Positions 2,748-21,877 of a DNA stretch of 64,000 bases are shown here, piece by piece. This DNA is from Candidatus Zixiibacteriota bacterium. GTDB lineage: Bacteria > Zixibacteria > MSB-5A5 > GN15 > FEB-12. The position numbers and the translations under genes were made by a program. The stretch is taken from positions 154,466-218,465 of the forward strand of contig JAVEYB010000001.1 in the NCBI GenBank assembly GCA_034003725.1. Direction: 5' to 3'. The stretch's first letter is position 1, and the number at the start of each line of letters is the position of its first letter. Below the pieces are notes generated by a model. It did no database searches, had not been told where the DNA came from, and saw only the letters and a program-made list of their open reading frames with translations.

Positions 2748-3332
2748 ATGCGGCAGATTTCCAGCGAAGAACTTTGGGTCTGGGCGATCCTGATCGTGAC
2801 GGGGCTGGTGCTCGCGCTCGTTGTGCGATCCACTCGTCCGGTGCGCCGCGAACTGGACCGTCAGCAGCAACTGACCCGCCAGCGTTTCAAACACGTTATC
2901 GATCCGCTGGCCGGTGATTCTTACTGGGGTTCGGTCCGCCCGCCGGTCTACCTCCCGATTACGTTTCTGGTGATGGGCGCGTTCGCGCTGCGATGGTTCT
3001 TCAACCCGGTTCCGGGAATCTTCTTGCTGGCATGGGCGTGCGTGCTGGGGCTCGCTGTTTACCTGGACCGCCTCAGTCGTCGTCGCGCCAAAAGCGTGGA
3101 CGATCAGACGCCCGACATGGTCGTCCGCTGGATTCGTGTCGCAACGCTGTTCGTGGCGGGACTCGCGATTCTGCTGTTCATCCACGAATTGATGGGAATC
3201 GCCCTGATGCTGGCCGCGCTCGCCATGGTATCGGTCACCTGGCGCGACCATCGACGCCTGCTCGCCGAAGAAGCCCGGCGGCAGGAGGAAAGCCGGGCGG
3301 TCATCCGCGATGTCGGCCGAAGCGCCGGGTGA
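2748..3332 (+). CDS. Hypothetical integral membrane protein (about 4 TM helices)
   Basis: ORF with hydrophobic segments (WVWAILIVTGLVLALVV, ITFLVMGAFALRWFF, GIFLLAWACVLGLAVYL, VATLFVAGLAILLFI..ALMLAALAMV). No recognisable family. An antisense ORF overlaps it, so coding status is uncertain. Confidence 0.45.
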   Translation: MRQISSEELWVWAILIVTGLVLALVVRSTRPVRRELDRQQQLTRQRFKHVIDPLAGDSYWGSVRPPVYLPITFLVMGAFALRWFFNPVPGIFLLAWACVLGLAVYLDRLSRRRAKSVDDQTPDMVVRWIRVATLFVAGLAILLFIHELMGIALMLAALAMVSVTWRDHRRLLAEEARRQEESRAVIRDVGRSAG

Positions 3333-3345
3333 CGCAGGCGTTCGC

Positions 3346-4494
3346 CTACAACCACTTCTTCCGCCAGAACCACACCAGCGACCCGCCACCCACGAGTGCG
3401 ACCAGCACCCAGAACAACGGGTAACCGTAGCGCCATCCCAGCTCGGGCATGTTGAACGGACTGACAGCCCGGTCGAAATTCATTCCGTACACGCTCGCCA
3501 GAAACCCCAGCGGGATGAAGATGGTCGCGATAATCGTCAGCACCTTCATCACGGCGTTCATCCGGTTGCTGACACTGGTGAGGTAGATGTCGAGCATGCC
3601 CGAGACCGTCTCCCGTAGCGACTCTACGGTGTCGAGCGACACAAGGGAATGTTCGTAGAGGTCGCGAAGATAAACCCTCGTCTCCGCGCGGATAAGCGCC
3701 GAGTCGGCGCGTTCCAGCATCCCGATCGTCTCCCGCATGGGCCACACCGCGCGACGAATCAAGGCAAGCGCCCGCTTGACGTCGAGAATGTCGGCCAGCC
3801 GGTCGCGGTCCGCGCCCTGCACCAGGCTGTCTTCGATGTCCTCGATCTGGTCGCCGAGTTGCTCGAACGCGAGATAGTACTGGTCGACAATCAGGTCGAG
3901 CAGCGCATAGGCGAGGTAGTCGCTCTGATGCATCCGCTGACGTTGCCCGAGCCGTTCTATCCGATCCTGAATGGGCGCGAAGATGCTATCGGGGCCTTCC
4001 TCGAACGAAATCACCCACGATCGGCCCCAGACCACGGTCACCTGCCGGGTCGTCAGCAGTTTCGACTCACTGTCGTAGGCGAGCGTCTTGGCCACGACCG
4101 ACAAATACTCGCCGACGTCTTCGAACCGGGGCCGCACGTTCGTGTTGAGCGCATCCTCGATCGTCAGCGCGTGAATCTGGAAGTGCGAGCCGATTTGCCC
4201 CACTGTTCGCGTGTCGTGGACGCCGACCACACGAATCCAGCTGGTGGGTGCGCTGTCCCGGCACGTGAATGTATCGGACGCCTGCACCGCCTGCCGGACG
4301 GAGAAATCGGCCTGGTCTACGTCTACGATGGTGATCGATGCCTCACCCTCGCGCGGCTCGCCCACGTACACGAGCGAGCCGGGCTCCATGCCGACTTTGC
4401 GCCGCGCTGCCGGCCGCCCGGCACGATGACGCTTCTTGCGCGTCTGGCTGTTGAGCGCGCGGGCCGGCTCTGTCGGATCAGTTTCCGGAATCAT
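3346..4494 (-). CDS. corA: CorA-family Mg2+/Co2+ transporter
   Basis: C-terminal YGMNF (GMN) motif between two TM helices. GGAGGA Shine-Dalgarno 7 nt upstream of ATG 4494 (MIPETDP). Confidence 0.85.
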   Translation of the reverse strand: MIPETDPTEPARALNSQTRKKRHRAGRPAARRKVGMEPGSLVYVGEPREGEASITIVDVDQADFSVRQAVQASDTFTCRDSAPTSWIRVVGVHDTRTVGQIGSHFQIHALTIEDALNTNVRPRFEDVGEYLSVVAKTLAYDSESKLLTTRQVTVVWGRSWVISFEEGPDSIFAPIQDRIERLGQRQRMHQSDYLAYALLDLIVDQYYLAFEQLGDQIEDIEDSLVQGADRDRLADILDVKRALALIRRAVWPMRETIGMLERADSALIRAETRVYLRDLYEHSLVSLDTVESLRETVSGMLDIYLTSVSNRMNAVMKVLTIIATIFIPLGFLASVYGMNFDRAVSPFNMPELGWRYGYPLFWVLVALVGGGSLVWFWRKKWL

Positions 4495-5389: not shown

Positions 5390-5504
5390 GTCGAGCCTCA
5401 CTTTCTCTGGCAGCAGAGCGACTTGTGCGATCCACATTCGACTATCGTAAAACAAGGGTGCATCGGCAGGTTTGTCAAGGAACTGCGGCAATCGATCGGG
5501 AGCG

Positions 5505-5544
5505 GCAAAAAGAAGCGGGCGGGCGCCATCACGGCGCCCGCCCG
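5505..5544 (-). terminator. Rho-independent terminator after the 5582-6376 gene
   Basis: 12-bp GC stem cgggcgggcgcc / ggcgcccgcccg, followed on the minus strand by CTTCTTTTTG. Confidence 0.6.
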
Positions 5545-5581
5545 TCAGCGGTCACGTTGTCCGGTCAGAAATCGAGCGCGG

Positions 5582-6376
5582 TTACTCGCCCATACCCGGC
5601 ATCGACTTTCCAAAGCTCTCCTTGGTGTAGCCCTCGGGAACTTCGTAAATGCCGGCGGGAGCGTCCTTGGTCGATAGCTCAATCACCTCAAAGGTGCTGG
5701 TCATTTTCTGGCCCATCATGGTGGTGGTCGTGATGGTTCTCACCGGCATGCCCTCGATGGCCTTCATCTTTGCGATCATATCATCGAATCCCGGCAGGAT
5801 GGCGAGCATGGCGTTGGTCGCGGACCACAGCGCCTCGTAGTTGATGTCGACGTCTTTGGTTACCCACATGTCCGAGACGGTGGTCCCCATGGACATCGTG
5901 ATCTCGGCGACATACTTGCGGGTGTCCCAGTCGCGAATTTTCTGCGTTGAATCGGTCGGGGTAACGGTCATCTTGACTTCGCCCATCATCTGTTTCATCA
6001 TCTCTTTAGCCTGAGCGAGCTGAGCGTCGTCGGAGTCTTCCGCAGCCTCGGCCATTATGGAATCGACCATGTCATTGAAATTGACCGGCAGTTCCGTGTA
6101 CTTCTTGGCGCCGTGATCGATCATGTACATCTTGCCAAGATCAGCGCGAACGATAATCGACGTGTTGTCGCCGGTCAGCGACGCCACTTTGTCACTGGTG
6201 ACCCATACCGAACCGGTATCGGTCCGCGCAGGCTGGGTCTGTCCCATCATCTGCAATTCCGGCGTATGATGCACCTGCACCATGTAGATGTCGGCCGATG
6301 CGGCACCGGCCAGGGCGCAGATCAGCGCCGCAAACATGGCAACGCGCACAACTACGGTTCCCGTAAAGCGTGACAT
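5582..6376 (-). CDS. Secreted Met-rich protein, possibly DUF4412/LolA-like fold
   Basis: Signal peptide MSRFTGTVVVRVAMFAALICALAGAASA. GGAGGAA Shine-Dalgarno before ATG 6376. About 26 Met in 264 aa, in clusters such as EMMKQMMGEVKM, TMMGQKM and SMPGMGE. Confidence 0.6.
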   Translation of the reverse strand: MSRFTGTVVVRVAMFAALICALAGAASADIYMVQVHHTPELQMMGQTQPARTDTGSVWVTSDKVASLTGDNTSIIVRADLGKMYMIDHGAKKYTELPVNFNDMVDSIMAEAAEDSDDAQLAQAKEMMKQMMGEVKMTVTPTDSTQKIRDWDTRKYVAEITMSMGTTVSDMWVTKDVDINYEALWSATNAMLAILPGFDDMIAKMKAIEGMPVRTITTTTMMGQKMTSTFEVIELSTKDAPAGIYEVPEGYTKESFGKSMPGMGE

Positions 6377-6590
6377 GTGATTCCTCCAGAGCGCCTGTGA
6401 AGCGCGTCTCAAACAGGCGACCATGCGGTCGCCCTCGGTGATTAAAGAGTTACGTTCTGTTCGTCCGTCAATTATGCGGATCCTTCCCGAGAGCCCGGAT
6501 AGAATAGGTGAGACGCCCGGATGATACAAGCAAAAAGTCGCAATGAACGGATATATGAGATTAAACTTCACTCGTATGCGGACAGGCGCC

Positions 6591-6623
6591 GAAAAAAAAA
6601 ACGGCGGAGAAGTTCTCCGCCGT
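6591..6623 (-). terminator. Rho-independent terminator of the MCP gene
   Basis: 10-bp stem acggcggaga / tctccgccgt with a 3-nt loop, followed on the minus strand by a run of 9 T. Confidence 0.7.
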
Positions 6624-6648
6624 GTAAATGCACTTTCGGGTATACCGA

Positions 6649-8775
6649 TCAGGCCTTGATACGGAATTTCTCCACCATGCGATTGAGGCCGTCGGCCTGT
6701 CGACTCAGTTCTTCGGCTGCGGCGGCCGACTGTTCGGCACCGCGAGCGGTTTCTTTGGTGACCGAGGAAATGTAGTCGATGTTTTTCAGGACACCCTCGG
6801 CGGAGGCCGACTGCTCTTCGGTGGCAGTGGCGATCTGCTGAATCATCGCCATGACTTCCTGTGTCATCGTGACGATCTCGTTGAGGCTGGCGCCGGCCTG
6901 GTCGGCCAGTTGACGACCGGTTTCCACTTCCTTGATACCGGACTCCATCGACGACACGGCGTCGCCGGTCTGGTTCTGAATGCCTTTGATCATTTCAGTG
7001 ATCTGGCCCGTTGCTTTGCCGGTACGCTCGGCGAGTTTGCGGACTTCGTCGGCCACGACGGCGAATCCTCTTCCCTGCTCACCGGCCCGCGCGGCTTCGA
7101 TCGCCGCATTGAGCGCAAGCAGGTTGGTCTGGTCGGCGATGTCGTCGATCACATCGATGATTTCACCGATCTTGTCGGCAGCCTCAGCGAGCTGGCCGAT
7201 AGACCCGGCGGACTGCCGCACGACTTCGGCAATCTTGTGCATGCCGTTGATTGTCTCACTGACAATACACCCGCCCTGCGAGGCGTTGTCGGAGGCGCGC
7301 TTGGAGGCCTCTGAAACGGAGCCGGCGTTTTTGGCGGACTCCGCTATGGCCGCGTTCATCTCTTCAATCGCCGCGGAGACCTGTCCGACCTGGTCGGACT
7401 GGTCTTTGGCGCCACGGGGCATTTCCTCGGAGGACGACGCGATCTCGGTTGCCGCGCTGACCAGTTCCTGGGCATTCTGAGACAGTTGGCGGATCATATC
7501 GGTGAAGTTGGCCAGCATTTTCTTGAAAGCGTGGCCGAACGTGTCTTTATCCGAGCGGGGTTCCACGGTGACGGTGAGATCGTTGGCGGCGATTCTCTCC
7601 GCGGCGGCTGCCGCACCCTGCAGATAGTTGATCATGGCGTTAAACGACCTCGCGAGCACGCCAATCTCATCCTTGGAGTTGATATGGACGGTGCGGGAGA
7701 GGTCGCCCTGCGCCATAGATTCGGCGATGCGGGCTACTTCCTTGATCGGACCGGCAATCGACCGGGCCATAAAAAAGCCCGCTATCAGCGAGACGACCAG
7801 ACAGATGATGCCCAGCAGGAGAATGGAGTTCCGGACGGAGTTGGCCGGGGCGGTGAATTCATCGAGATAGCTGCCAACACCTATAATCCAGTCCCATTCG
7901 GGGAAGTACGCGTAAGCAACGATTTTGGTGCGCGCTTCCGTCTCACCCAGTTCCTTGTTGATCCAGTCGTAGTACACCCATCCGATTTCATCCGCGGCCA
8001 GGGTGGGCGCCTTCGCCACCATTTCCTTGGCGAAATCATGCGTGGTCAAGTCGGAACCTTCTTTTGCCGGGTGAATCTGCAGGATGCCCTGTGAGTTCAT
8101 CGTGTAGATGTACCCGGTCTTGCCGACTTTCTCTCTCAGCAGGGCGGTACGCAATGTGGCGGACCGCTCCTCGACGCCGACGAAGTAACAGCCGACGACG
8201 CTTCCGGAGACGTCGCGAATCGGCTCGTAGGCGGTGACAAGCCAGCGATCCACGACAAAGGCGCGCCCGTTGAACGACTTGCCATCACGTATGACGGCGT
8301 CGTAGACTTCCTGCGACAGGTACGTTCCCACGGCACGCTTGCCCTGATTGTCGACAACGCTGGTGGAGATCCGCCGGGCCCGGTTACCGTCTTTCATAAA
8401 GATCGTGCAGTAAGCACCGGTGTTCTGGTTGACCCAGTCGACGAATTCCGTGTTGTCATTGACCGTCCAGCCGGTCCCGATACCGCCGGCATACATGATG
8501 CCGTCCTGCAGCACGACACTGCTGCCGCCGCGCGCATCGAATACCTTGCGCGTGGAGGACAACAGGCCCTGCACGGCGGATTTGGACTGCTCTGCGCTGA
8601 CCTGGCACAGGTTCTTGGCCATGGCCGTCATGTGCGCGAGATCGTTCTGGGCGAGTTCGGTCAAGTACTTCTCGGACTGATACACGCTGATCATGGTCAC
8701 ACCCGCCATCGAAATGACCAGGATGACGAACATCATCAGCATGAGCTTTTGGGTGAGTTGAAAACTGAGTTTCAT
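6649..8775 (-). CDS. Methyl-accepting chemotaxis protein with a periplasmic Cache-like sensor and HAMP domain
   Basis: The signalling hairpin [37 protein letters not shown] is diagnostic. Two TM segments flank a periplasmic domain of about 290 aa. HAMP ([18 protein letters not shown]). AAGGAG Shine-Dalgarno before ATG 8775 (MKLSFQL). Confidence 0.9.
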
Positions 8776-10668: not shown

Positions 10669-11685
10669 TTATCGTCCGGGTGCCACGATAGCGGTATCGA
10701 TTCCCACCAGTTGCCCTTCGGGCCAGACCCCGTATAACTCCACAATCCAGGTTCCGGGATAGACGTCATAGAGGATCGAGCGCAGGTTGTAGAGGCAATA
10801 GCAATCACACATGCCGAGCGAGTCGCCTTCAAAGGCACGGATTACGTTTTCATCGAACTCGAATGTCGTGAAAAATCCAGGGCAGCAGTTCATCCATGCA
10901 CCCATGTGGTGGATGTAGAGATCGTTACCGACGACGTCTACATGCATTGACTCTTCCTGACCGATCCACACCGTATCGATGCCAACCGTATGGCCGTCGC
11001 CGTGAACAAGTTCGACGATATACATGGTCGGCTCCTGGATCTCTATCAGGTAGATGACCGCTTCCAGGTTGAAATAACACATGCAGTAGCAGGGATTGTT
11101 CGTCGTGTCTGCTTCCTGCACGGTGACGTAGTAACCGCCGGGGATGTTCTCGATCTGTGCGGTGACCGCGTACATCATACAGCAGTTGTAGTAGGCGTTG
11201 AAGTGGTGCACGTGAAGATCATCGCCGACGATCTCGGCATACATGTACTCGGTCGAGTCTTCTTCACCAAGTTCCGGAAAAGCGATGCATTCGCCCTGCG
11301 TGACTGACAGCGTGGACATCGAACCGGCAACGCCCGGAACCTTGTCAGTCTGCAAGCACTTACCGTCAGTCGACTCGCGGATGATACCCGGGCAATCGGG
11401 CGCCGGTCCGCCCAGAAACGCGAGATTAACAAGCCTGATAAGATCGGACATGTCAAGCAGCCCATCGGCGTTGCAGTCGGCTGTGTAGGGACAATTCGGC
11501 CCGCTGCCGCCAAGGAAGAGGAAGTTGACCAGATGGATGATATCGCTGAGGTCAGTGGCGGTGCCGTCACCGTTGATGTCGCCACAGAGCGGCTCCGAGA
11601 CAGCGCTCGCGGATACGGCAAAGAAGATGGCGCAGAGACAGGCACACGACACCGCAAGTTTGCTGCGGATAAATGCGCGTGACAT
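10669..11685 (-). CDS. Secreted protein with an N-terminal dockerin-like EF-hand pair and a duplicated Cys/His-rich module
   Basis: Signal peptide. Dockerin-like repeats GDINGDGTATDLSDIIHLVNFLFLGG and CNADGLLDMSDLIRLVNLAFLGG. Two copies of a module L-x-[VI]-HH...NCC...C-x-C-x-C-[FL]-[FY]-NL...IVEL. Confidence 0.7.
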   Translation of the reverse strand: MSRAFIRSKLAVSCACLCAIFFAVSASAVSEPLCGDINGDGTATDLSDIIHLVNFLFLGGSGPNCPYTADCNADGLLDMSDLIRLVNLAFLGGPAPDCPGIIRESTDGKCLQTDKVPGVAGSMSTLSVTQGECIAFPELGEEDSTEYMYAEIVGDDLHVHHFNAYYNCCMMYAVTAQIENIPGGYYVTVQEADTTNNPCYCMCYFNLEAVIYLIEIQEPTMYIVELVHGDGHTVGIDTVWIGQEESMHVDVVGNDLYIHHMGAWMNCCPGFFTTFEFDENVIRAFEGDSLGMCDCYCLYNLRSILYDVYPGTWIVELYGVWPEGQLVGIDTAIVAPGR

Positions 11686-11841: not shown

Positions 11842-13602
11842 TCAGTTCTTAAGCTGGTGCGCGACCAGTTCGCGGTACAGGGCGGAACGCTCCATCAACA
11901 CGTCGTGACGACCCTCATCGACAATTCGTCCGCGATCGAGCGCTACGATTCGGTCGACGTGCTTGATCGTAGAGAGGCGATGGGCAATGATAATTGCAGT
12001 TTTGTCAACCAGGACTTGTTCGAGGGCCTGTTGAATCAGGTACTCCGAGTTGGCATCCAGCGCCGAGGTAGCTTCATCGAGTATCACCACGGCCGGGTTT
12101 TTGAGTATGACGCGGGCCAGACACAGTCGTTGTTTTTCGCCTCCGGAGATTGTTACGCCACGCTCGCCGACAATATGTTGGTATTTATCGGGCAAGCTGT
12201 CGATGAACCCGCCGATGTTGGCGATCCGCGCCGCGGCATGTACGTCGGCCTCGGTCGCTGTCGGCACACCGAACGCTATGTTGTCATGGATTGTGGCGCG
12301 AAAGAGCAGCGGTTCCTGATCAACGATGGATATGGCGCTGCGAAGACTGGTGAGCGAGAGGTTGCGAAGGTCGACGCCGTCAAGCGTGACCGTCCCGTCG
12401 TCCGGATCGAAAAACCGCATAATGAGATTGATGATTGTAGTTTTTCCGGAGCCCGACGGTCCGACGATGGCAACCTTCTCCCGCGCCGCCACTCGCAGAT
12501 TGATCCCTTCGAGTCGAAAGCCGTTACTGCCCTCGTAGGCGAAACGCACATGTCGCAACTCGACCTCGCCTCGAGGCTGCGACAGCACGACCGGGTTCGG
12601 CGGCTCGACAACGGTCGCGGGGATATCGAGGTACTCGAAGATGCGGTCGACCGACGCCATCGCGGACTTGACCTCGATATGCAGCGATGCCAGCCCTTCG
12701 ACCGGACTGTACAAATAGGTCAACAGCATATAGAAGGCGATCAGAGCGCCGAGCTGCATTTGTCCCTGTGCGATCAAATACGTTCCCCAGGCGAGTACGA
12801 CAATCGGTCCCAGCATGGAAATGAACTGCACGACATTGACGGAGAGCGAGGTATTGACGGATATCTGGACGTAGAGCCGGGTGATACGGTCGACGATCGT
12901 GCGGAGGCGGCCGCCCTCGCGGTTTTCCTGTCCGAACGCCTTGACCGTCTTTATGCCGGTAAAAGACTCCTGTATTCGCCCGGACAGCGAAGCGATGGCT
13001 TCCTGCAACCACCGGCTGATCCTGTTCAGGCGGCGGCCGTAAAACGAGGTAATCACCACCGTCAGCGGCACGGGAATGATCGCAATAACCGTCAGGTACC
13101 AGTTGACGTTCAGCAGGTAGATCAGAATCGCCACCAGCAGCAGAATGTTGGTGAAGAACATCAGAAGCGTCGAGGTCAGCAGGCTCTGCACGCGGCTGAC
13201 GTCGGAGAGAATCCGCGACATGATCTCCCCCACCTGATTGTTCTGATGGAACTGCAGCGAGAGCGACTGAAGGTGTGCGAAGAGTGCGGTTCGCATGTCC
13301 GCGATGATGTGCGCGCCGATATAACCGGCGAGATAATCACGGACCCAGGAGAACAATACATTGGCCAGATAGACACCGACCAGAAACAGCCCGAACATGA
13401 CGATCGGTGTGATATCGGGGCTGGCGGAGTCTCCGGCAAGCAGCGTCGGAATCAGATCATCGATAAGATACCGGACGGCGCCGGGAAGGACGAGCGCGAG
13501 CGCCGCGATGATCGTCATCACGAACAGCGTCAGCAACTCCAGACCCCAGTAGGGGCGGAGGTAACACCACAGCCTTTGGACTTTGCTCTTTTTCGCCGTC
13601 AT
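11842..13602 (-). CDS. ABC exporter, fused permease/ATPase (MsbA-like half transporter, no C39 peptidase domain)
   Basis: Six-TM N-terminal domain. Walker A GPSGSGKTT, signature LSGGEKQR, Walker B VVILDEATSALD, H-loop IIIAHRL. It lies directly downstream of the rSAM genes. Confidence 0.9.
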   Translation of the reverse strand: MTAKKSKVQRLWCYLRPYWGLELLTLFVMTIIAALALVLPGAVRYLIDDLIPTLLAGDSASPDITPIVMFGLFLVGVYLANVLFSWVRDYLAGYIGAHIIADMRTALFAHLQSLSLQFHQNNQVGEIMSRILSDVSRVQSLLTSTLLMFFTNILLLVAILIYLLNVNWYLTVIAIIPVPLTVVITSFYGRRLNRISRWLQEAIASLSGRIQESFTGIKTVKAFGQENREGGRLRTIVDRITRLYVQISVNTSLSVNVVQFISMLGPIVVLAWGTYLIAQGQMQLGALIAFYMLLTYLYSPVEGLASLHIEVKSAMASVDRIFEYLDIPATVVEPPNPVVLSQPRGEVELRHVRFAYEGSNGFRLEGINLRVAAREKVAIVGPSGSGKTTIINLIMRFFDPDDGTVTLDGVDLRNLSLTSLRSAISIVDQEPLLFRATIHDNIAFGVPTATEADVHAAARIANIGGFIDSLPDKYQHIVGERGVTISGGEKQRLCLARVILKNPAVVILDEATSALDANSEYLIQQALEQVLVDKTAIIIAHRLSTIKHVDRIVALDRGRIVDEGRHDVLMERSALYRELVAHQLKN

Positions 13603-13728
13603 AGTCGTAACCGGTAGTCGGTCACTCCCTCGCTAGATTTCAGCGCCGTATAATACGCACGCCGGGCGTCGATAGCAACGCCCGGCGCACATCAAAAACA
13701 CTCGACATCAGCGGCCGATGGCCGTATC

Positions 13729-14847
13729 TCACTGAGCCGGCATCTCCTCGCCGATCTGCCGATAAACCGCGGTCAGCAGGTTGGTAATCAGCTCATTGTC
13801 CTGGCAATGCAGCCCCTGCCCGTGCTCAATCCGGTATATACAGTAAGGGTTGTCGCCCCGCGACCCGGATGCGGAAACTGCCGTCGTCGCACAGCCGGCC
13901 CGGCACATCGGCAGATACTTGCACTGCTTGCAGAAACCGCCGGCGGACTCTCGCTTGAATTTGCGGTTGTACGCGAAGGCGTCGGGGTCGTTCCAGATCT
14001 CGGTAAGGGAACGCGTGCGGATATTGCCCTCGACGAACTGCTCGGGCATCGACAGGCATCCCTTGATATCGCCGTTGGACTCGATCCCGAGTCCCCGCGT
14101 TCCGGCAAAACATCCCCAGTACGGGTGGCCGTCAGTCAACATCGTTCCCTTACAGCCGTAGTAACCGATATTCTCGCCGACATCGATATCCAGCCGCTTG
14201 TCCTGTTTCAGTTCGAGGATCTTGTCAACGAAACGCGGGAAGTTCTCGATCGACATGACGAGATTGCCGTGTTCCCTCATGCGGCCGGTGGCCGTGGTCA
14301 TCTGGATGCGCCACTGCGGCACACCGCTGTCGATAAGGATATCGCGGATCGTCTCCATCTCGTCGAGGTTGATGTTGGAGATCTGGCTCAGGGCGCAGAA
14401 TTTTTTCAACCGGGGGTTGGCGGCCATCAGATGGAACGCGTTGATCACCCGGTCGTAACTGTCCTCGCGCTGCCGGATGAAGTTGTGGGTCTTTTTGACG
14501 CCGTCGAAACTGACGCCGACATTGCGAAGGCCGACATCGACGAAGGTATCGACAATCTCCGGCGTGACCGCCATACCGTTGGTGATCAGGTACGGTTTCG
14601 CGCCGTTGTCGTTGATTCGTTTAGCCAGCAGGGGCCAATCAGTGCGAAGCAGCGGTTCGCCGCCGGAGAGGGTGATGTCCACCGCCCCGAGCGCGCATAA
14701 CTCGTCGATCAGGGCCAGGGCTTCGTCGGTCGTCAGTTCGTCGGGACGTTTCTTCCCGGCGGCCGTGCCGCAGTGGAGGCAACGCATATTACAGGCAAAC
14801 GTGATCTCCCAGACGACGGCTTGCGGATAAAACTGAAACTCGCTCAT
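13729..14847 (-). CDS. Radical SAM/SPASM-domain enzyme (putative peptide maturase B)
   Basis: CNMRCLHC (CxxxCxxC) cluster motif near the N-terminus. C-terminal SPASM cysteines GC...C...GC and CKQCKYLPMCRAGC (CX2CX5CX3C). ATG 14847 overlaps the upstream stop as ATGA. GGAGGAG Shine-Dalgarno. Confidence 0.85.
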   Translation of the reverse strand: MSEFQFYPQAVVWEITFACNMRCLHCGTAAGKKRPDELTTDEALALIDELCALGAVDITLSGGEPLLRTDWPLLAKRINDNGAKPYLITNGMAVTPEIVDTFVDVGLRNVGVSFDGVKKTHNFIRQREDSYDRVINAFHLMAANPRLKKFCALSQISNINLDEMETIRDILIDSGVPQWRIQMTTATGRMREHGNLVMSIENFPRFVDKILELKQDKRLDIDVGENIGYYGCKGTMLTDGHPYWGCFAGTRGLGIESNGDIKGCLSMPEQFVEGNIRTRSLTEIWNDPDAFAYNRKFKRESAGGFCKQCKYLPMCRAGCATTAVSASGSRGDNPYCIYRIEHGQGLHCQDNELITNLLTAVYRQIGEEMPAQ

Positions 14848-16190
14848 GACTTCTCCTCCACAGCGGCTTGCATCCGCTGCTGTCGTTCGCGTGCGATTAT
14901 TTCGAGCATCGGTTGAAGGTTGTGCTTCCAGCTGTCGCACAGCTGGTCGCCGGAGGCGACGCCTTCGGCGCGGCGGGCGGGACATCCGCCCATGCAGATG
15001 GGCAGTATCGTGCAGTCGCGGCACTTCTCGTCCTCGAATGGATCGAAGGCGAAGAGGCGCTGGAAATTTTCATGATGGAAGTCGATAGGCTCTTTGATGT
15101 TCCCGGTCGCCCTGGACAGGTCGCCGACATAATTGAAGCATCGGTACAGGTAGCCCTCGTGGTCGATCAGAAACGAGTTGACCTGCTGCGACATGCAGAC
15201 GGTCGCTGACGGCGACGGCAGCGACTCGATCCGAAATCCGTTATCGAGCAGAATTCGGTAAAACGCCGCCTCTATCGCGGCGAAATCCCGGTTCTCGTAG
15301 CACTGGTCTGCGATATTGGCGCATGCCGTGGTGGCTGACTCGATCTTGCCGAAATTGACCGCCACCCGCTCTTGCAGCCCGGCTCGCGCAAGCTCGTCGA
15401 GCAACTGCTGCACCATATCGGCGGTGAACGTGCGGTCGACATTAACGCGGACGCTGATCGACATCAGCCCGCTGGCATACGTGATATTCTCGATTATCCG
15501 ATCGAAGCTTTCCTTGCCGTTCTTCAGCGGCCGCTTGCGGTTGTGGATATGCGACGGTCCGTCGAGCGTGACCTGCACCTGCCGAACGTGCAGCTCGGTG
15601 AGTCGATCGACAGTCTCGCGCGTAAGCAGATAGCCGTTGCTGATCATCGATGCGTCGTACGGAATGCCGTGTGACGTGCCGACCTCAAGGAACGCGGCGG
15701 TCAGCCGCTCGATAATATCCATGGCCAGCAAGGGTTCGCCGCCATACCAGCAGACGTCGAGATGCTTGAGCTGCGCAGCCTGACGGTTCACGAAGGCAAT
15801 CAGGCTGTCGATCACCTCGGTCGACATCCGGCCTCGCTTGTTGCCCTCGAAACAGTACCGGCACGCCATGTTACAGGCCATCGTGGGGGCGATGACGAGG
15901 CCGAGCGTGCTGGTTTCAAACCGCGTCCGGCGGTGGAGGAATTTGTAGGAACGGAGTTCGTCGCGCGCGTCGTCGTATAAAAACCGGCCGTAAATCAGCT
16001 GCTGCAGCAACTGCTGCTCGGCCTCGGTAAAGGATGGCGACTCGCCGTTGCCCAGTTTCGCGGCGAGCGCGCAGTAGGCAGCGTAGTTTTCATCGGTCAT
16101 GAGTGCCACCGCACCGCTGCATGCGTTGTACGCTATGTGGTACCCGTTTGGCCCGGACTGAAAGTGATTATACCGCGATACCTTAAACAT
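14844..16190 (-). CDS. Radical SAM/SPASM-domain enzyme (putative peptide maturase A, with an N-terminal extension of about 100 aa that could be a peptide-recognition element)
   Basis: CNMACRYC rSAM motif at about residue 100. SPASM motif CRDCTILPICMGGC plus upstream CMSQQ...YRC. N-terminus KVSRYNHF...YNACSGAVALMTDENY resembles peptide-modifying anSME-like maturases. Start is ATG 16190, or alternatively TTG 16199. Confidence 0.85.
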   Translation of the reverse strand: MFKVSRYNHFQSGPNGYHIAYNACSGAVALMTDENYAAYCALAAKLGNGESPSFTEAEQQLLQQLIYGRFLYDDARDELRSYKFLHRRTRFETSTLGLVIAPTMACNMACRYCFEGNKRGRMSTEVIDSLIAFVNRQAAQLKHLDVCWYGGEPLLAMDIIERLTAAFLEVGTSHGIPYDASMISNGYLLTRETVDRLTELHVRQVQVTLDGPSHIHNRKRPLKNGKESFDRIIENITYASGLMSISVRVNVDRTFTADMVQQLLDELARAGLQERVAVNFGKIESATTACANIADQCYENRDFAAIEAAFYRILLDNGFRIESLPSPSATVCMSQQVNSFLIDHEGYLYRCFNYVGDLSRATGNIKEPIDFHHENFQRLFAFDPFEDEKCRDCTILPICMGGCPARRAEGVASGDQLCDSWKHNLQPMLEIIARERQQRMQAAVEEKS

Positions 16191-16235
16191 GAGTTTCAAC
16201 CAATCAGCTTTCGTCCCTATTCACGTCGTTGACCA

Positions 16236-16265
16236 GGTGCGGGAAAGGTCGCCCCTTCCCGCACC
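16236..16265 (-). promoter_or_regulatory. GC-rich hairpin in the 273-nt spacer between the precursor genes and maturase A (possible attenuator or processing site)
   Basis: 10-bp stem ggtgcgggaa / ttcccgcacc with a loop of about 10 nt. No U tract follows, so this is not a canonical terminator. Confidence 0.35.
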
Positions 16266-16463
16266 GTCGTTTCTCCCGATCGGCACGGCGTGCGGCCGAA
16301 CCGAATACAACCCTCCGCAAATCGGATAATTTGCAGGCACCGATCGCGCCCAGCTGCGCGAGTGATTGCGGTGCAGTTGCCCTTGAATCGTGTGTCTCAA
16401 CCACGGTTCAGACCGACGGTGTCCGAATCGGGCATACAGCCTCGCAAGGCTGTGCAGCGTGCA

Positions 16464-16580
16464 TTAAATCGGAATCGGTGGTACGCCATACAGCGGGTAC
16501 ACGACACCTTTGCACCTGGTCTTGCAATAAATTCTGCAGACCTGCGTCGTCACATCGCTTGGATCGATGAGATAAATCAC
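16464..16580 (-). CDS. RiPP precursor peptide 1 (38 aa): MIYLIDPSDVTTQVCRIYCKTRCKGVVYPLYGVPPIPI
   Basis: GTG start 10 nt after AAAGGAGGTGA. TAA stop. CxxxCxxxC core. Paralogous to the peptide at 16695-16802, with mostly synonymous differences. Too short (under 60 aa) for the supplied ORF track. Confidence 0.7.
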   Translation of the reverse strand: MIYLIDPSDVTTQVCRIYCKTRCKGVVYPLYGVPPIPI

Positions 16581-16694
16581 TCTTGTTTCACCTCCTTTCA
16601 GTGGGTTCAGGTTTCACTCTGCACTGACTGTTCGTGCGATACGGTGATAACGACATTCCATAAGCAATGCCGATCACCTAACGCGGGGTATCGC

Positions 16695-16802
16695 CTAAAT
16701 CGGAACCCCGTACAAAGGATACACGACACCCTTGCACTTCTTGCTGCAATAAAGAATGCAGACCTGGCTGGTCACATCCTTCGGATCGATTAAGTAGATC
16801 AC
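16695..16802 (-). CDS. RiPP precursor peptide 2 (35 aa): MIYLIDPKDVTSQVCILYCSKKCKGVVYPLYGVPI
   Basis: GTG start 9 nt after AGGGAGGTGA. TAG stop. Same CxxxCxxxC-KGVVYPLYGVP architecture. Against peptide 1 there are 13 synonymous and 7 replacement codon differences. Confidence 0.7.
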   Translation of the reverse strand: MIYLIDPKDVTSQVCILYCSKKCKGVVYPLYGVPI

Positions 16803-17215
16803 CCGCAGTCACCTCCCTTCAGTCGGAGTAGCAAAGTGTTTGAGGTACGTCGGCACACATCCGCACGGCGGCGCCGCACATATGCGGCCGGGTTAAGACG
16901 TGTAAATGCGTTTAAAACGTGGTGAATAAATGACTGGACCGTCGATGCCGATTCACCTCCACAGCGGTTAGTCTATCTGAAGGCATATCACTGCGATTGC
17001 GCACGACGTGCACAGCCGCGTTCGGCAATTCCTGGGCGTCGCCATGTTGCGACGACGCCGTCAAAGCTGCTGCTGATAAAATGCGGGTCCCCGGATTGAC
17101 CCCACACCCTTACAACTCGAAAAGTCGTTCCACAACTTCGACCGAGACCATCGCTTGTGCGCGATTTCACACATCTTTATCCAAAAATCGCGTTAGCACT
17201 CTACGATGTGGAAAC

Positions 17216-17244
17216 AAAATAATTTTCGTAGAGTATCTTGTCAA
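17216..17244 (-). promoter_or_regulatory. Candidate sigma-70-type promoter facing the RiPP locus
   Basis: The minus strand reads TTGACA-N17-TATTTT inside a local AT-rich island. It is overlapped by an 8-bp inverted repeat CTCTACGA...TCGTAGAG (17199-17233). It lies about 410 nt upstream of the first precursor gene. Confidence 0.3.
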
Positions 17245-17320
17245 GTATTTTCTGGCGGCGAGTGATCACGGAAGAATCGCACACGCCGCCGCGCAACCGC
17301 GCCGGCTGTGCGGCGAACAG

Positions 17321-17800
17321 TCAGCGTCGACGCCGGTCGCGACGGCCTGATGCGGTGGTGTCTTCCGGGGTGTGAACAACGCTGACATTCGACAACGATG
17401 ACCAGTTGCCCGATTCGTCGACAGCCTTGATTCCGAAGTAGTAGGTCGTGTCCGGCCATAAGGGCAGAACCCTCGTCACGGATACTTTCGAACCCGAGGG
17501 CGACGGTGTGGGAATATTGGAAACCGGTGCGGCCCTGTCCCAGGAGGCGCGGAGTACAGCAGAATCTAACGCGTAGCGGATCTCGTATCGAGCAGCGGTC
17601 CCCACCTCGCCATCGTCGCCGACCGCCGTCCACGACAGTGTGACCCGGACGCCGTTCTGCCGTTCGGGGATATGTTCGGTCGCCTGCGAGCTGTCTGATC
17701 CGGAACCGCAGGCTACGAAAAGCGACATTGTCAAAGCGACAGCCCCTACTGAGAGAGCGCGCGTCACGAATGCGAGGTAATGTGCGTGGCGACGATGCAT
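17321..17800 (-). CDS. Lipoprotein with a fibronectin type III-like domain
   Basis: Lipobox LFVAC-GSG after a hydrophobic signal. FN3-like pattern VTLSWTAVGDDG..ARYEIRYA...YYFGIKAVDESGNWS. Confidence 0.65.
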   Translation of the reverse strand: MHRRHAHYLAFVTRALSVGAVALTMSLFVACGSGSDSSQATEHIPERQNGVRVTLSWTAVGDDGEVGTAARYEIRYALDSAVLRASWDRAAPVSNIPTPSPSGSKVSVTRVLPLWPDTTYYFGIKAVDESGNWSSLSNVSVVHTPEDTTASGRRDRRRR

Positions 17801-17927: not shown

Positions 17928-18590
17928 TCAACAGCCGGGCAGGCATGCCGCCGGAGCGGACCCGCCGAGGAACAGGAAATTGACCAGGTAGATCAGATCG
18001 GACAAGTCAATGTTACAGCCCGCGTCGCCGTTGGTGTTGGCCGATGCCTGACAGACTGGGGACGGACCACCCAGGAAAAGGAAGTTGACCAGATAGATCA
18101 AGTCGGACAAATCGACGTTCCCGCCCGCGTCATCGTTTACGTTCCCCGTATTTCCGGTGCAGCAACCGGACGATCCGCCGGCAAAATCCTGCCAGTATCC
18201 CTGATTGAGCGTATAACTGGCTGACGATGCGACGCCGACCGCTGTCTGGCCGATCGTACCGTTCATCTGGAAGCTGGCCGACGAACCCCAGCCGCCGCCT
18301 CCGCCGATCACCCACCAGTTGATCTGCTCGCCTGCCATCGGCGATTTGACTTGTTCCGTAACGACCGGCGATGTCCCGGCGGGCGAATCCGGGCGGGGTT
18401 CCGGTGACACGACGGCCGACTGTTGTTCGACCGAACCGGGCTGCGGCGCGGCTTGCTGCTGCGCCGGCGGTGCGGGCTTGCGTTTCGATTCGACAGTTCG
18501 CTCGTCAAGCGTACGATCTTTCGCGAATGCGCCGCCGACCGTCAAAGCGGTGATCGCCGCATACATCAGAAGCCGCGCTAGCGTTCTCAT
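17928..18590 (-). CDS. Secreted protein with a C-terminal dockerin-like repeat pair
   Basis: Signal peptide MRTLARLLMYAAITALTVGGAFA. Pro/Gln-rich linker. Repeats NDDAGGNVDLSDLIYLVNFLFLGG and NGDAGCNIDLSDLIYLVNFLFLGG. Confidence 0.7.
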   Translation of the reverse strand: MRTLARLLMYAAITALTVGGAFAKDRTLDERTVESKRKPAPPAQQQAAPQPGSVEQQSAVVSPEPRPDSPAGTSPVVTEQVKSPMAGEQINWWVIGGGGGWGSSASFQMNGTIGQTAVGVASSASYTLNQGYWQDFAGGSSGCCTGNTGNVNDDAGGNVDLSDLIYLVNFLFLGGPSPVCQASANTNGDAGCNIDLSDLIYLVNFLFLGGSAPAACLPGC

Positions 18591-18631: not shown

Positions 18632-19675
18632 CTATTCTGTCTCATTCATTTGCGATTCCGGGATGCCGTAGGTCACCTTGTCGTCCTGGTGCTCCTGCAG
18701 TTTCAGCGGCACGCTCATCTGGAGTTCGCGTGGAGCGAACGTGGCGCTGAAGACGACATAGCCCCAGATACCCAACGCATACGCGGCGTTATTGGTATTC
18801 CCATTAAGCCAAAACGTATAATAGCCCGCACTCGGAATATCTACCGTTCTGGAGAGAGCGAAGTAATGGGTGGGATTATTGGAGCTGGCATTGTCCGCGT
18901 CCTGAGCAAATACACTCTCGTACGTTGTACCGCAATTGGCTGGACTGGAAGTCCCAGGGGCATCGCAGAGGCCGAGTCCGTATGTTACTGTGAGGCTGGA
19001 CGACGAAGTTGCATCCGCATTCAGGTAGGATTGACCGGTGGCGGTAACCCGAAGGTAACCGGGACCGGGCGCCTGGATAGTAACACCGTAAAGAGCAACC
19101 GGCAAGGTGCTGACCGTCAATGCATACCCCGGGCTCGGCGCCAGTTCCCCGATCGCGGTTGCCGCGTTGGGCGCGAGCTTATCGACCGTCACCGCCGAAT
19201 CCCGAATACTGGAACTGATCACGCCATCATCGGTGACGAAATCGGTGACCTGTGACTGAAGGGAAAGCACCGATTGCCATGCATACGGGACAGTGGTCAG
19301 GCGGGTCCGGGGGGATATCTCCGGGTCCGCCCCTACCGTAATGCCGAGAAAAGCAAGACTGTCCGAGATGAAGTCACCGTCGCCGAAGATGCCGAGATTC
19401 AGCGGGTTCATCGGAGGAGCGCCCAGACGGACCGAAAACAGGCCGTCGGTTGTCGTTACCGTGACCGGTCCACTGTCCCACAACTCGTTGGCCGGGGCGC
19501 TGGCGGTTGAATCGTTGTAGATTATGAATCGCATCCCTTTCGGACCGTCCGGCAGCGGATTGCCGCCCGCGTCGGTCAGCCGTCCCTGGTACGAAATTAC
19601 GTTGGGCACTTCGTTGGAGACGGCCGCCGAACAAAACAAAAACACTGCCGCAAGAACGACTGTCGCTTCTTTCAT
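18632..19675 (-). CDS. Secreted protein, paralog 1 of a pair sharing a conserved N-terminal module of about 120 aa
   Basis: Signal peptide MKEATVVLAAVFLFCSAAVS. N-terminal module ISYQGRLTDAGGNPLPDG..FIIYND..LWDSGPVTVTTTDGLFSV.LG, also present in 19984-21501. GGGAG Shine-Dalgarno before ATG 19675. Confidence 0.7.
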   Translation of the reverse strand: MKEATVVLAAVFLFCSAAVSNEVPNVISYQGRLTDAGGNPLPDGPKGMRFIIYNDSTASAPANELWDSGPVTVTTTDGLFSVRLGAPPMNPLNLGIFGDGDFISDSLAFLGITVGADPEISPRTRLTTVPYAWQSVLSLQSQVTDFVTDDGVISSSIRDSAVTVDKLAPNAATAIGELAPSPGYALTVSTLPVALYGVTIQAPGPGYLRVTATGQSYLNADATSSSSLTVTYGLGLCDAPGTSSPANCGTTYESVFAQDADNASSNNPTHYFALSRTVDIPSAGYYTFWLNGNTNNAAYALGIWGYVVFSATFAPRELQMSVPLKLQEHQDDKVTYGIPESQMNETE

Positions 19676-19983
19676 GGTTCCGACTCCCATGTATCAACGC
19701 CAACCAAAATGCCCGGTTGAATAAACTGCGTCTGAATGAAAGTCACATCGGCGAGTGCGTGTACTGCGGCATGCCTATACGCACAGAGTCGGCGTGCGTA
19801 CGTTCGCGGCCGGTGTGAGTATTAATCCGAGATATCCTCTGAAAGACACGCGCCCCGTGTCGAGGCCGGACCGGCGGCGATGTGCGTCGGTCGTTCCTCT
19901 CAGTACACAGTATATATATCACCGATGCTGCCGGCAAGTTAAAAATCTACCAAATGCGTCCATAAACGGTGGGGAAGGTTCCC

Positions 19984-21501
19984 TTACTTGTCGTCGCTAT
20001 CACCCGCGTCACGCATCCGCCGTTCCTGCTCCATTCGCAGGTCCATCTCTGCACGATCAGCCTCAGCCCGGGCTCTTTCCAGCTCCGCCCGTGCGCGAGC
20101 TGCCCGGAGCTCCAATTCACGAAGGTCAACTTCGTACAGGTTGTCCGCGTTCGGCGCCTTGTGGACCGACGGCACATTCGACGGTCCAAGCAGTACGACT
20201 GACTCAAACCCGCCCGTCCCGGACGACGATGCCAGTGTCGTCACCGAACCGTACGACGTCGGCAGGAAGATCGCCGTAAGCGAGGGAAACCAGACCGCCA
20301 CCACACCATTGTTCGTCCAGCGCCTCCCCTCGAGACGGAAGGTGTACGTGCCCGCGCTCTTGAAATACACCCGCTGATTGGAGTTACTATAGTAGTTGGT
20401 TTGCGTACTAAAAAAACCATCGGCCCCACTGAATGAGTAGTACGGCGACTGGATGCTGCCTCCCGCCGTTTCGTCTATCTGAATATAGCCGCCCTGGTTG
20501 GCCGTCGTGTTACTTGATACGACCCAGCAGTGTGCCTGCAGGAAAATGTACCCTTCCGTCGGCGTTGTGATCGTGACGGTTGTCAAATCCTGCATGGTGG
20601 TCGAACTGTTAAGCTCGATAATATTGCCGGACCGATTGGCGGCAAGGCCGGGCTCGTTTACCAGTTCGTTTGAGTTGATAGCGTTGGGCGGAAGCACCGT
20701 GGACGCATCTCCAGACAGAACCCCCAGAAACTGGTGAGTATAGGTTCCCGCGGTGTCTACCATCCGCAGTGAACTCACTCCTGACGGTGATCCCCCGAGC
20801 GCGATAACGCCACCGAGTGTCGTGGGATTGTAGAGCTGAAGAGACCCGCCGAGCGACGCGCCGGAGCTTAAAAACGCCGTATTCTGATCCGAGATGTCAT
20901 ACAGGAAGATCGAGCCATACTGCGAACTGGACAGCCAGGCCTTTATGTTCCCCTGGTACCTCATTGCGATATTGGAGTGGTCGGCCTGGTTCAGCAGCTG
21001 GAGGTTCGCGAGGTGCGCGGGACCGTCAAACTGTAAGTCGCCGGTTATCACGTCACCGGTATCATTGACATACTGATCGTCGGTCAGTTCTTCCGCGGAC
21101 CCGGCATGCATGGCGTACGGTACCGCGGCAACGCGTGTTCTCGGACTTAGCTCAGGATCGGCACCAACGGTGATGCCGAGCCAGGTCATAGAATCCGCAA
21201 ACAGGTCGGACGGAAAGGACGGCATAGGGGCTTCGCCGAGCGTGACCGAGAAAAGGCCGTCAGTCGTCGTCACACTGGTGGGGCCGCTGTCCCAGAGGAC
21301 GTTGACCGGGTTCGAGGAGGTCGGATCGTTGTAAATGACAAAACGAACACCCTTCGAACCGTCTGGCAGCGCCGTCCCCGTCGCGTCCGTCAGTCGTCCC
21401 TGATAGCTGAACCGGTTGGGCACGTCCGCTTTCGACCAATCGAGTGCGGCGACGACCAGAAGCAGTGCGAACGCCGTTTTTCGCAGACAACTCACGATCA
21501 T
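19984..21501 (-). CDS. Secreted protein, paralog 2 (505 aa) with a C-terminal charged coiled-coil tail
   Basis: AGGAG Shine-Dalgarno before ATG 21501 (MIVSCLRKTAFALLLVVAALDWSKA). N-terminal module FSYQGRLTDATGTALPDG..FVIYND..LWDSGPTSVTTTDGLFSVTLG. Tail DLRELELRAARARAELERARAEADRAEMDL. Confidence 0.7.
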   Translation of the reverse strand: MIVSCLRKTAFALLLVVAALDWSKADVPNRFSYQGRLTDATGTALPDGSKGVRFVIYNDPTSSNPVNVLWDSGPTSVTTTDGLFSVTLGEAPMPSFPSDLFADSMTWLGITVGADPELSPRTRVAAVPYAMHAGSAEELTDDQYVNDTGDVITGDLQFDGPAHLANLQLLNQADHSNIAMRYQGNIKAWLSSSQYGSIFLYDISDQNTAFLSSGASLGGSLQLYNPTTLGGVIALGGSPSGVSSLRMVDTAGTYTHQFLGVLSGDASTVLPPNAINSNELVNEPGLAANRSGNIIELNSSTTMQDLTTVTITTPTEGYIFLQAHCWVVSSNTTANQGGYIQIDETAGGSIQSPYYSFSGADGFFSTQTNYYSNSNQRVYFKSAGTYTFRLEGRRWTNNGVVAVWFPSLTAIFLPTSYGSVTTLASSSGTGGFESVVLLGPSNVPSVHKAPNADNLYEVDLRELELRAARARAELERARAEADRAEMDLRMEQERRMRDAGDSDDK

Positions 21502-21877
21502 AGCTGATACTCCTGTACAGAGGTGTGTCCGGCGTTGTGCACGCACACGCCGGAGGTCAGCCGTTCGACGGAACTGCACGGAAGAAATCCGGCCCGTCAG
21601 TCCCGAGCACGGCGCAGTACGACATCGTTTGTGGATCTGTGGGCTGTCTGCCGTCGCCCCCCGGCAAAGTGGATGAGAGTCTTCGATGGCGCCTGTGGTT
21701 AACACCACAGGCGGCCCGCGCGAACCTCCATCAATATACGGGACGCCTGGCTAAAGACAAGTAAATATACCGTATTAGTCCATAAATAAGACCTACCGTC
21801 CCTGGCCCGGTGGGTCGGGCCAGGCGCCTTCGCAGTCTGCGCGAGCCGGTCTTGTCAGGACGGTCTTATCAGTTCGC

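Follow-up and report, generated by a model that had tools for sequence, protein, structure and literature searches.

Spliceotides are defined by the tripeptide X-Y-G as their splice site; natural splicing has been proven at LYG and MYG, and spliceotide products act as inhibitors of serine and cysteine proteases (PMC11414181, PMC11626197, PMC10533398). Known spliceases require either a PlpY-like activator or a helical leader, and splicing is one of the few routes by which β-amino acids and ketoamide warheads arise in ribosomal products. A second kind of system, comprising the Clo7bot peptides and their maturases (TIGR04333/TIGR04334), CefA/CefB and the TIGR04463 enzymes, is not known to have been characterised chemically. 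Here we describe a gene cluster that, on present evidence, combines these two known kinds, Clo7bot/ranthipeptide-like and spliceotide-like, rather than representing a categorically new mechanism. It lies in a stretch of 64,000 nucleotides from a Candidatus Zixiibacteriota bacterium (assembly GCA_034003725.1, contig JAVEYB010000001.1, positions 154,466 to 218,465; hereafter the window) and consists, on the minus strand, of two unannotated open reading frames (ORFs) for short Cys-rich peptides (A and B), two radical S-adenosylmethionine (SAM) enzymes with SPASM domains (rSAM1 and rSAM2) and an ATP-binding cassette (ABC) exporter. We lean towards the reading that the two radical SAM enzymes make cross-linked, exported peptides bearing a ketoamide, through the linking of cysteines and splicing at X-Y-G.

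Peptide A (35 residues) is encoded at 16802–16695 and peptide B (38 residues) at 16580–16464, each from a GTG start. Their translations are (V->M)IYLIDPKDVTSQVCILYCSKKCKGVVYPLYGVPI and (V->M)IYLIDPSDVTTQVCRIYCKTRCKGVVYPLYGVPPIPI, both followed by a stop codon, giving MIYLIDPKDVTSQVCILYCSKKCKGVVYPLYGVPI for peptide A and MIYLIDPSDVTTQVCRIYCKTRCKGVVYPLYGVPPIPI for peptide B. The two peptides share an MIYLIDP leader and cysteines at positions 15, 19 and 23, with C-termini containing P-L-Y-G-V-P-I in A and P-L-Y-G-V-P-P-I-P-I in B. Each start is preceded on the minus strand by a Shine-Dalgarno (SD) site, AAGGGAGG at 16812–16819 for A and AAAGGAGG at 16591–16598 for B, whose GGAGG ends 9 and 10 nucleotides before the GTG, respectively. 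Between the upstream in-frame stop and the GTG there are non-start codons only in both frames. A preliminary description of this DNA had listed the same coordinates, GTG starts and SD sites and the lack of any other in-frame start, all of which are present in the sequence.

Over 34 shared codons, A and B differ by 13 synonymous and seven replacement changes, exactly the counts reported earlier, and the replacements (positions 8, 12, 16, 17, 20, 21 and 22) lie, as described, at position 8, at position 12 or between the cysteines. The Nei-Gojobori dN/dS ratio is 0.10 between A and B and 0.075–0.10 in comparison with the orthologues in loci L001 (A, 5417–5524; B, 5626–5742) and L048 (B, 5545–5661), with the synonymous sites saturated, which agrees with the purifying selection proposed for the coding frame. 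The likeness of the two copies at the DNA level is confined to the stretch from the SD site through the stop codon. The 167-aa ORF that runs antisense to the region (16290–16793) has no Pfam match and is not kept in L001, the closest locus, where the antisense ORFs reach only 44–49 aa; it had rightly been called spurious. A scan of 16000–17300 with Rfam matched no family. The exact sequences of A and B have not been gene-called in a collection of 15 billion proteins, probably because of their GTG starts. As judged from these sequence comparisons, both unannotated ORFs are real, translated genes under purifying selection.

The extent of the peptide family was examined by scanning one genome per species with the rSAM1 protein, which yielded 53 related loci (47–76% identity), mostly titled Zixibacteria or GN15, with some titled Ignavibacteria(les), Eisenbacteria, FCB group or Deferrimicrobium. 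A hidden Markov model (HMM) seeded from the window peptides (E=3.6e-22 for A and 2.8e-21 for B) was run on six-frame translations of these loci and detected 89 peptides, 83 of them distinct, upstream of rSAM1 in 49 of the 53. In the remaining four, the upstream part is cut off (L030, L043, L053) or masked by an N-run (L020). The 84 matches at E<=0.01 are all found on the same strand as rSAM1, 60–2755 nucleotides upstream of it (median 273); at this threshold neither the opposite strand nor any of 26 unrelated control loci has a match. An SD-like site precedes 88 of the 89 peptides. The start codons (76 ATG, 12 GTG and one TTG) coincide in every case with the M of M-x-Y/F-L-I/V-D/E-P.

Independent gene calls gave a similar picture. 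A profile built from an alignment of 50 members, the first of them 40 aa long, searched against 5.8 billion predicted proteins, returned 95 matches, 94 of them at E<0.1; those with names are all ‘hypothetical protein’, and the source is Zixibacteria wherever an organism is stated. No gene-called match has a Pfam domain on record, the window peptides have no NCBIfam match at E<=1, and three other members have none at E<=10. In total, 177 homologues retain the reading frame. The precursors are 31–48 residues long and occur as one to five divergent paralogues per locus, with a hypervariable core. The proposal of paralogous Cys-rich precursors of ribosomally synthesized, post-translationally modified peptides (RiPPs) ahead of two radical SAM/SPASM genes therefore held up both in the databases and in its co-occurrence with the enzymes, and the peptides appear to form a large, unannotated RiPP precursor family confined mainly to Zixibacteria.

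Across the family, M1 and P7 are invariant and the N-terminus M-I-(Y/F)-L-(I/V)-(D/E)-P is conserved. The first cysteine is at position 15 in 54 of the 83 distinct peptides. Near the C-terminus, Y-G is found in 79 of the 83, with Y-S in its place in one more; in these 80 peptides Tyr is preceded by Leu (58), Met (13) or Cys (9), Pro occupies the second position before Tyr in 77, and Val or Ile follows the Gly position in 75. The gene-called homologues carry X-Y-G in 94 of 94 cases, all together with the leader, although the search profile itself favours X-Y-G. The cysteines are far more variable. CxxxCxxxC, the commonest pattern, is present in about half of the members, the number of cysteines ranges from one to six with variable spacing, and in some subfamilies a cysteine follows Y-G. 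The family signature is thus the leader, a variable Cys core and P-X-Y-G-(V/I), rather than CxxxCxxxC. Of the leader, cysteines and tail that had been presented as invariant on the strength of A and B, the leader holds family-wide and the i, i+4, i+8 spacing does not, so that loss of this spacing in homologues is not the right test of the family. The part of the hydrophobic, Pro-rich tail that tells most is the near-invariant P-X-Y-G-(V/I), which matches the X-Y-G of spliceotides.

Several loci depart from this pattern. L023 has two peptides (1806–1924 and 2100–2198; MDYL(V/I)DPKNFETSLTCCTPQGCYLYA...) that keep the leader and lack P-X-Y-G, and these precede a first copy of rSAM1 (2385–3761) without an rSAM2 directly after it; the peptides ahead of the second rSAM1-rSAM2 pair in the same locus have YPLYS instead of YPLYG. 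This single case hints at an association of the leader with rSAM1 and of X-Y-G with rSAM2. Leader-bearing peptides without Y-G, ending in ...CPHRF(E/AVIEEETTL), were seen in L010 (3139–3246) and L022 (3734–3844) and may represent a separate sub-family within the same clusters. In L037, a peptide gene (5805–5867) is frameshifted, reading MIYLIDPMEPTVEACTSSAS up to a stop and then ...IKPLYGVPTETE in another frame, and the rSAM1 frame (6001–7347) is interrupted by stops. It is the sole such case among the 89 peptides, and the locus is either decaying or part of a long-read metagenome-assembled genome with indel errors.

The first enzyme, rSAM1 (14844–16199, minus strand; likely true start the ATG at 16190, MFKVSRYNHF...), has an RRE-like N-terminal domain (RRE, RiPP recognition element), a radical SAM core and a SPASM domain, as indicated by NCBIfam and by the match to CteB. 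Its best NCBIfam model is the Clo7bot maturase TIGR04334 (343 bits against a cutoff of 600, over model positions 1–433), followed by TIGR04463 (315 bits, cutoff 525) and, again below their cutoffs, the geopeptide, CefB, FlmE/OhkG and PapB maturases. The PapB score (143 bits, cutoff 340) places that relationship at the superfamily level only. A profile of 24 rSAM1 orthologues matches CteB (5WGG) with E=1.4e-26, starting at CteB residue 14, within the part of CteB that contains the recognition element in the published structure, and again over the SPASM domain. The CxxxCxxC motif and the SPASM cysteines are invariant across these orthologues, so that rSAM1 is probably catalytically active.

The plasmid-borne CtpM of Paraclostridium (L092), 35% identical to rSAM1, follows eight Cys-rich Clo7bot peptides, for example MKFIKKPARKFEEGYCFLSCSQDCGSLCGMNCG..., in which residue 7 is Pro, the first Cys is residue 16 and CxxxC is repeated, and an ABC gene comes after. 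A TIGR04463 enzyme that is 33% identical (L093) follows CefA, a protein of 680 aa that starts MQYLVQP, and is itself followed by a B12 radical SAM methyltransferase. Clo7bot (MKFIKKP; L092, 484–2138), CefA (L093, 373–2412) and the Zixibacteria peptides all start with M-x-(Y/F)-(L/I)-x-x-P, which may be recognised as a common tag by all maturases of the Clo7bot/TIGR04463/CefB clade. We infer that the N-terminal heptapeptide would be the recognition sequence for this clade and that rSAM1 would cross-link the cysteines.

The Clo7bot systems thus share with the window cluster their maturase type (as do CefA/CefB and TIGR04463), tandem paralogous short peptides with the first Cys at 15–16 and CxxxC repeats, and an ABC exporter downstream, while both the Methylomagnum cluster and half of the Zixibacteria loci have a B12 radical SAM methyltransferase. 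They differ in that the window peptides have no match to TIGR04333 (cutoff 31 bits), on which a genuine Clo7bot peptide scores 44.6 bits, in the shortfall of rSAM1 on TIGR04334, and in the absence of P-X-Y-G from Clo7bot peptides and of an rSAM2-type enzyme from Clo7bot clusters. An hhalign comparison aligns residues 1–8 alone (E=0.064). With the ranthipeptides, SCIFF and sactipeptides (CteB, PapB, QhpD, huazacin) the cluster has in common the architecture of RRE, radical SAM and SPASM domains, CteB as the best match of solved structure, and Cys-rich, regularly spaced substrates for which a thioether would be expected; in contrast, the SCIFF and huazacin peptide models are unmatched (13.6 bits, cutoff 35) and the Zixibacteria leader is far shorter.

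The second enzyme, rSAM2 (13729–14847, minus strand), is a 372-aa radical SAM/SPASM protein without an N-terminal RRE domain and is a candidate tyramine splicease. It is 100% identical to P0001, a ‘radical SAM protein [candidate division Zixibacteria bacterium]’. Among NCBIfam models, rSAM2 scores best on TIGR03913 (‘GDL motif peptide-associated’; 245 bits against a cutoff of 592) and next on TIGR04103 (‘nif11-class peptide radical SAM maturase 3’; 224 bits against 725), with TIGR04133, NirJ2, AhbD, MftC (131 bits) and PqqE (80 bits) ranking lower. Of the 100 representatives of 50%-identity clusters nearest to rSAM2 that were scanned, none scores up to a curated family cutoff.

Substrates with X-Y-G adjoin six of the seven rSAM2 relatives whose neighbourhoods were examined. 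In Nostoc, a bona fide TIGR04103 member that scores 853 bits on this model and shares 34% identity with rSAM2 stands behind a Nif11 precursor with the core RGSIALYGLPPELF downstream of the GG site; a 71-aa gene comes after the enzyme, in the position of PlpY. The GDL-type enzymes of Azospirillum, Burkholderia and Aureibacter (35–38% identity) follow DUF1843 ‘GDL’ proteins, which carry (P/M)YG(V/A/P) about 12 residues before the GDL motif. An enzyme of Agathobacter rectalis, 37% identical to rSAM2, follows an unannotated ORF that ends in PVMYGTGVRM. P0296 (39% identity, L090) follows a secreted repeat protein with three copies of TLYGIPFEK and one of KYGVPFET, and P0314 (40%, L091) has a possible DYG peptide upstream. 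Closer to the window, the rSAM2 homologues of L088 and L089 are 55–56% identical, and the KP(C/M)YGVP peptides beside them share the family leader.

Two of these neighbours deserve description in their own right. The A. rectalis ORF, MFNLEELSLEFVKISELKTSKNLFGPVMYGTGVRM, lies at about 2815–2922 of L082, on plasmid NZ_CP143948.1, with genes for a ‘radical SAM protein’ and an MFS transporter immediately downstream, and is probably an unannotated precursor of spliceotide type in a human gut bacterium. The repeat protein of L090 (2135–2980) is a secreted, Cys- and Asp-rich protein of 281 aa with QGTLYGIPFEK three times and GDKYGVPFET once, 20 nucleotides before the P0296 gene, and resembles a protein substrate with several sites for tyramine splicing.

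A possible fusion of the two enzyme types was also encountered. P0213, predicted at 938 aa, has an rSAM2-like N-terminal half (250 bits on TIGR04103) and a C-terminal half like the Clo7bot maturases (422 bits), and is either a natural fusion or a merge in gene calling. The pairing suggests that the partnership of rSAM1 and rSAM2 is functional beyond Zixibacteria. P0132 (731 aa) was considered as a further rSAM1-rSAM2 fusion and rejected, NCBIfam showing two halves that both resemble rSAM2/TIGR04133.

In comparison with the spliceotide systems (PlpA/PlpX/PlpY of Pleurocapsa; RhaA/RasA-RhaX/RasX of Rheinheimera; the TIGR04103 and TIGR03913 maturases), rSAM2 appears to belong to the same broad radical SAM/SPASM clade as the TIGR04103 and TIGR03913 enzymes (33–38% identity), and its presumed substrates have X-Y-G with X being Leu or Met, as at the sites where splicing is proven. 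An extended signature, L-Y-G-(V/I/L)-P, is common to the Zixibacteria peptides and the Nostoc Nif11 precursor (ALYGLPP), and cysteines flank the site as they do in RasA and RcsA. The Zixibacteria precursors, no longer than 48 residues and with a seven-residue N-terminal signature, lack a Nif11, NHLP or DUF1843 leader or domain, a Y protein and a helical leader; in their clusters rSAM1 is obligatory and further radical SAM enzymes, a B12-dependent third or a fourth, are often present, while rSAM2 itself stays below both the TIGR04103 and the TIGR03913 cutoffs.

Coding status, purifying selection, family membership, synteny, motif conservation and the relationships of the enzymes are observed; leader binding, thioether chemistry, splicing, the order of the steps and bioactivity are proposed as follows. 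MIYLIDP, ending about seven residues before the first Cys, would act as a minimal leader bound by the RRE-like domain of rSAM1, which would then turn the variable set of cysteines into intramolecular thioethers of sactionine or ranthionine type. Acting as a tyramine splicease, rSAM2 would process P-(L/M/C)-Y-G-(V/I), converting L-Y-G to a Leu-derived ketoamide; it may rely on rSAM1 for presentation of the substrate, since there is no Y protein or helical leader. The ABC transporter would export the product, most likely a serine- or cysteine-protease inhibitor by analogy with the characterised spliceotides. The expected mass signatures would be −2.016 Da for each thioether and −135.07 Da for splicing.

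More tentatively, the system may constitute a distinct RiPP class, in which a heptapeptide leader recruits the rSAM1-rSAM2 pair to give an as yet undescribed scaffold, a thioether-stapled peptide with a β-amino-α-ketoamide. Here rSAM1 would take the part that a Y protein or helical leader plays for other spliceases, by supplying the recognition domain, and some lineages would decorate the product further with a B12-dependent radical SAM enzyme and a fourth radical SAM/SPASM enzyme.

A number of points weigh against splicing and cross-linking by this pair. The scores of rSAM2 fall far short of the curated cutoffs of TIGR04103 and TIGR03913, and there is neither a PlpY-like activator gene nor a helical leader in the cluster. 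P0134 (43% identity), one of the two closest relatives of rSAM2 outside the family, is an exception among the neighbourhoods: the 29-aa ORF upstream of it contains no Tyr-Gly. A connection of TIGR04103 with the PlpX-type spliceases is assumed from the architecture of the Nostoc locus, rather than from the sequence of PlpX. The homology between the Zixibacteria and Clo7bot peptides is not significant by hhalign, covering eight residues, and the cysteines could form plain disulfides, as those of the Rheinheimera spliceotides do, in which case the reaction of rSAM1 would be something else.

Among the alternatives, the one that survives best, though we think it unlikely, is that the peptides are RiPP precursors and rSAM2 is not a splicease, P-X-Y-G-(V/I) being the site of a different radical reaction at Tyr (a three-residue Tyr-Gly-Val/Ile cyclophane, a Cys-Tyr or other C-C or C-O cross-link, or epimerisation) or a signal for docking or cleavage. 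It would account for the standing of rSAM2 below every curated family cutoff, for its resemblance to MftC, PqqE, AhbD and TIGR04133 as well, for the missing Y protein and helical leader, and for P0134 with its lack of an obvious X-Y-G substrate; the Val or Ile that nearly always follows Gly would also fit an aromatic-X-X cyclophane motif. However, the nearest relatives of rSAM2 with annotation or known context (33–40% identity) consistently adjoin X-Y-G substrates in five unrelated lineages, and these substrates share the extended L-Y-G-(V/I/L)-P with the Zixibacteria peptides. Moreover, the cyclophane models YhhB, AmcB and GrrM are not among the top matches of rSAM2 and are weak for rSAM1.

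Splicing might also proceed without thioethers, the cysteines forming disulfides or binding metal only and rSAM1 serving as a recognition or activator partner or as a modifier of another kind. The characterised Rheinheimera spliceotides do have a disulfide flanking LYG or MYG, the recognition element is found in rSAM1 and not in rSAM2, and the two enzymes are translationally coupled and, in P0213, apparently fused. This we regard as improbable in view of the full set of CxxxCxxC and SPASM cysteines in the 24 rSAM1 orthologues, consistent with an enzyme that is probably active, and of the association of all members of its clade (Clo7bot, CefB, TIGR04463, PapB and CteB) with Cys-rich substrates.

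That the peptides, like those behind mycofactocin or PQQ, give rise to a redox cofactor or to a small molecule that is derived from peptide and stays inside the cell is very improbable. Mycofactocin (MftA/MftC) offers a distant radical SAM/SPASM relative of rSAM2 and a short precursor with a Val-Tyr-containing C-terminal region, and the similarity to MftC and PqqE, the conserved Tyr near the C-terminus, the tail with Val-Tyr and the very short precursors of the Zixibacteria family can be read in that light. Yet the Tyr of these peptides is internal and not C-terminal as in the ...G-V-Y precursor of mycofactocin, rSAM2 remains below the MftC cutoff (131 bits on TIGR03962, cutoff 265), and no MftB/PqqD, MftD/E, MftF or PqqB/C genes are present. 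The hypervariable core and the one to five divergent paralogues per locus characterise bioactive RiPPs rather than cofactors, and the syntenic exporter likewise argues against an intracellular role.

Finally, that the ORFs are a non-coding direct repeat or RNA element, with the antisense 167-aa ORF as the true gene, might be read from their GTG starts, their size under standard ORF cutoffs and the lack of gene calls for their exact sequences, but is refuted by the comparative data, namely a dN/dS of about 0.1 at saturated synonymous sites, likeness limited to the SD site and ORF, 177 homologues that keep the frame, and an antisense ORF that is unconserved and domain-free in a region without an Rfam match.

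With regard to novelty, no Pfam or NCBIfam model contains these peptides, and no publication in the library that was searched covers them, although the Zixibacteria type might already be catalogued in the primary spliceotide literature. The earlier remark that their combination of features was not recognised from a described family is borne out by the database models and needs qualification as to relatives, which are known (Clo7bot and CefA, and the X-Y-G-associated radical SAM/SPASM systems). The analysis recovers two unannotated genes and puts forward a possible function for a cluster that is conserved across an uncultured phylum, with more than 170 peptide variants that are currently ‘hypothetical’ or uncalled. 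It also links the chemically uncharacterised maturase clade of Clo7bot, CefB and TIGR04463 to an N-terminal M-x-Y/F-L/I-x-x-P signature. If splicing by rSAM2 is correct, tyramine splicing would extend to a leader-minimal context with several radical SAM enzymes, and a substrate of 31–48 residues with a seven-residue tag would be of interest for engineering peptides and discovering protease inhibitors.

The order of genes, peptides followed by rSAM1, rSAM2, in some cases a B12-binding radical SAM gene, and the ABC exporter, is conserved among the related loci. In the window, the stop of rSAM1 and the start of rSAM2 overlap (ATGA), consistent with translational coupling, and rSAM2 is followed by a gap of 127 nucleotides without a small ORF and then by the ABC gene (11842–13602, minus strand). 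The latter encodes a protein of 586 aa with fused membrane and ATPase domains and no C39 peptidase domain, and is syntenic in nearly all complete related loci. A GC-rich hairpin with 13-bp arms and no U-tract (16236–16265, minus strand) lies within the 265-nucleotide spacer between peptide B and rSAM1, about 35 nucleotides upstream of the rSAM1 start, and may be a processing or attenuation element. A second GC-rich hairpin without a U-tract, GCGCCGGGCG...CGCCCGGCG (13655–13690), is located between rSAM2 and the ABC gene. Both may act in mRNA processing or stability and so set the ratio of precursor to enzyme. A scan of the intergenic regions for sigma-70 promoters and terminators gave nothing above shuffle expectation, and the hairpin at 16236–16265 was not called as a terminator.

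About half of the loci have the B12-binding radical SAM gene (484 aa) inserted after rSAM2 and before the ABC gene (L002, 8465–9919; also L005, L014, L017, L025, L035, L038, L039, L041, L042, L044, L047, L049 and L051); it is absent from the window cluster and from L001. Its best matches, all below cutoff, are TIGR04013, P- and C-methyltransferase families and the RiPP C-methyltransferase TIGR03975, which suggests a lineage-specific methylation. By eye, its presence showed no clean correlation with the peptide subtype (IKP-X-YG or VVYP-X-YG). The distant members L088 and L089, with peptides that start MEYLIDP or MEFLIDP and end KP(C/M)YGVP, have an extra radical SAM/SPASM gene ahead of the rSAM1 homologue (L088, 1570–2634, 354 aa; L089, 484–1614, 376 aa), and clusters of this type contain up to four radical SAM enzymes.

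The flanking genes of the window cluster, also on the minus strand (10669–11685, 17321–17800, 17928–18590, 18632–19690 and 19984–21708), encode several secreted proteins with dockerin-like ‘DLSDLIYLVNFLFLGG’ repeats and a Cys-rich protein of 338 aa. They are syntenic only in the closest loci, L001 and L048, and are therefore probably neighbours rather than parts of the system.

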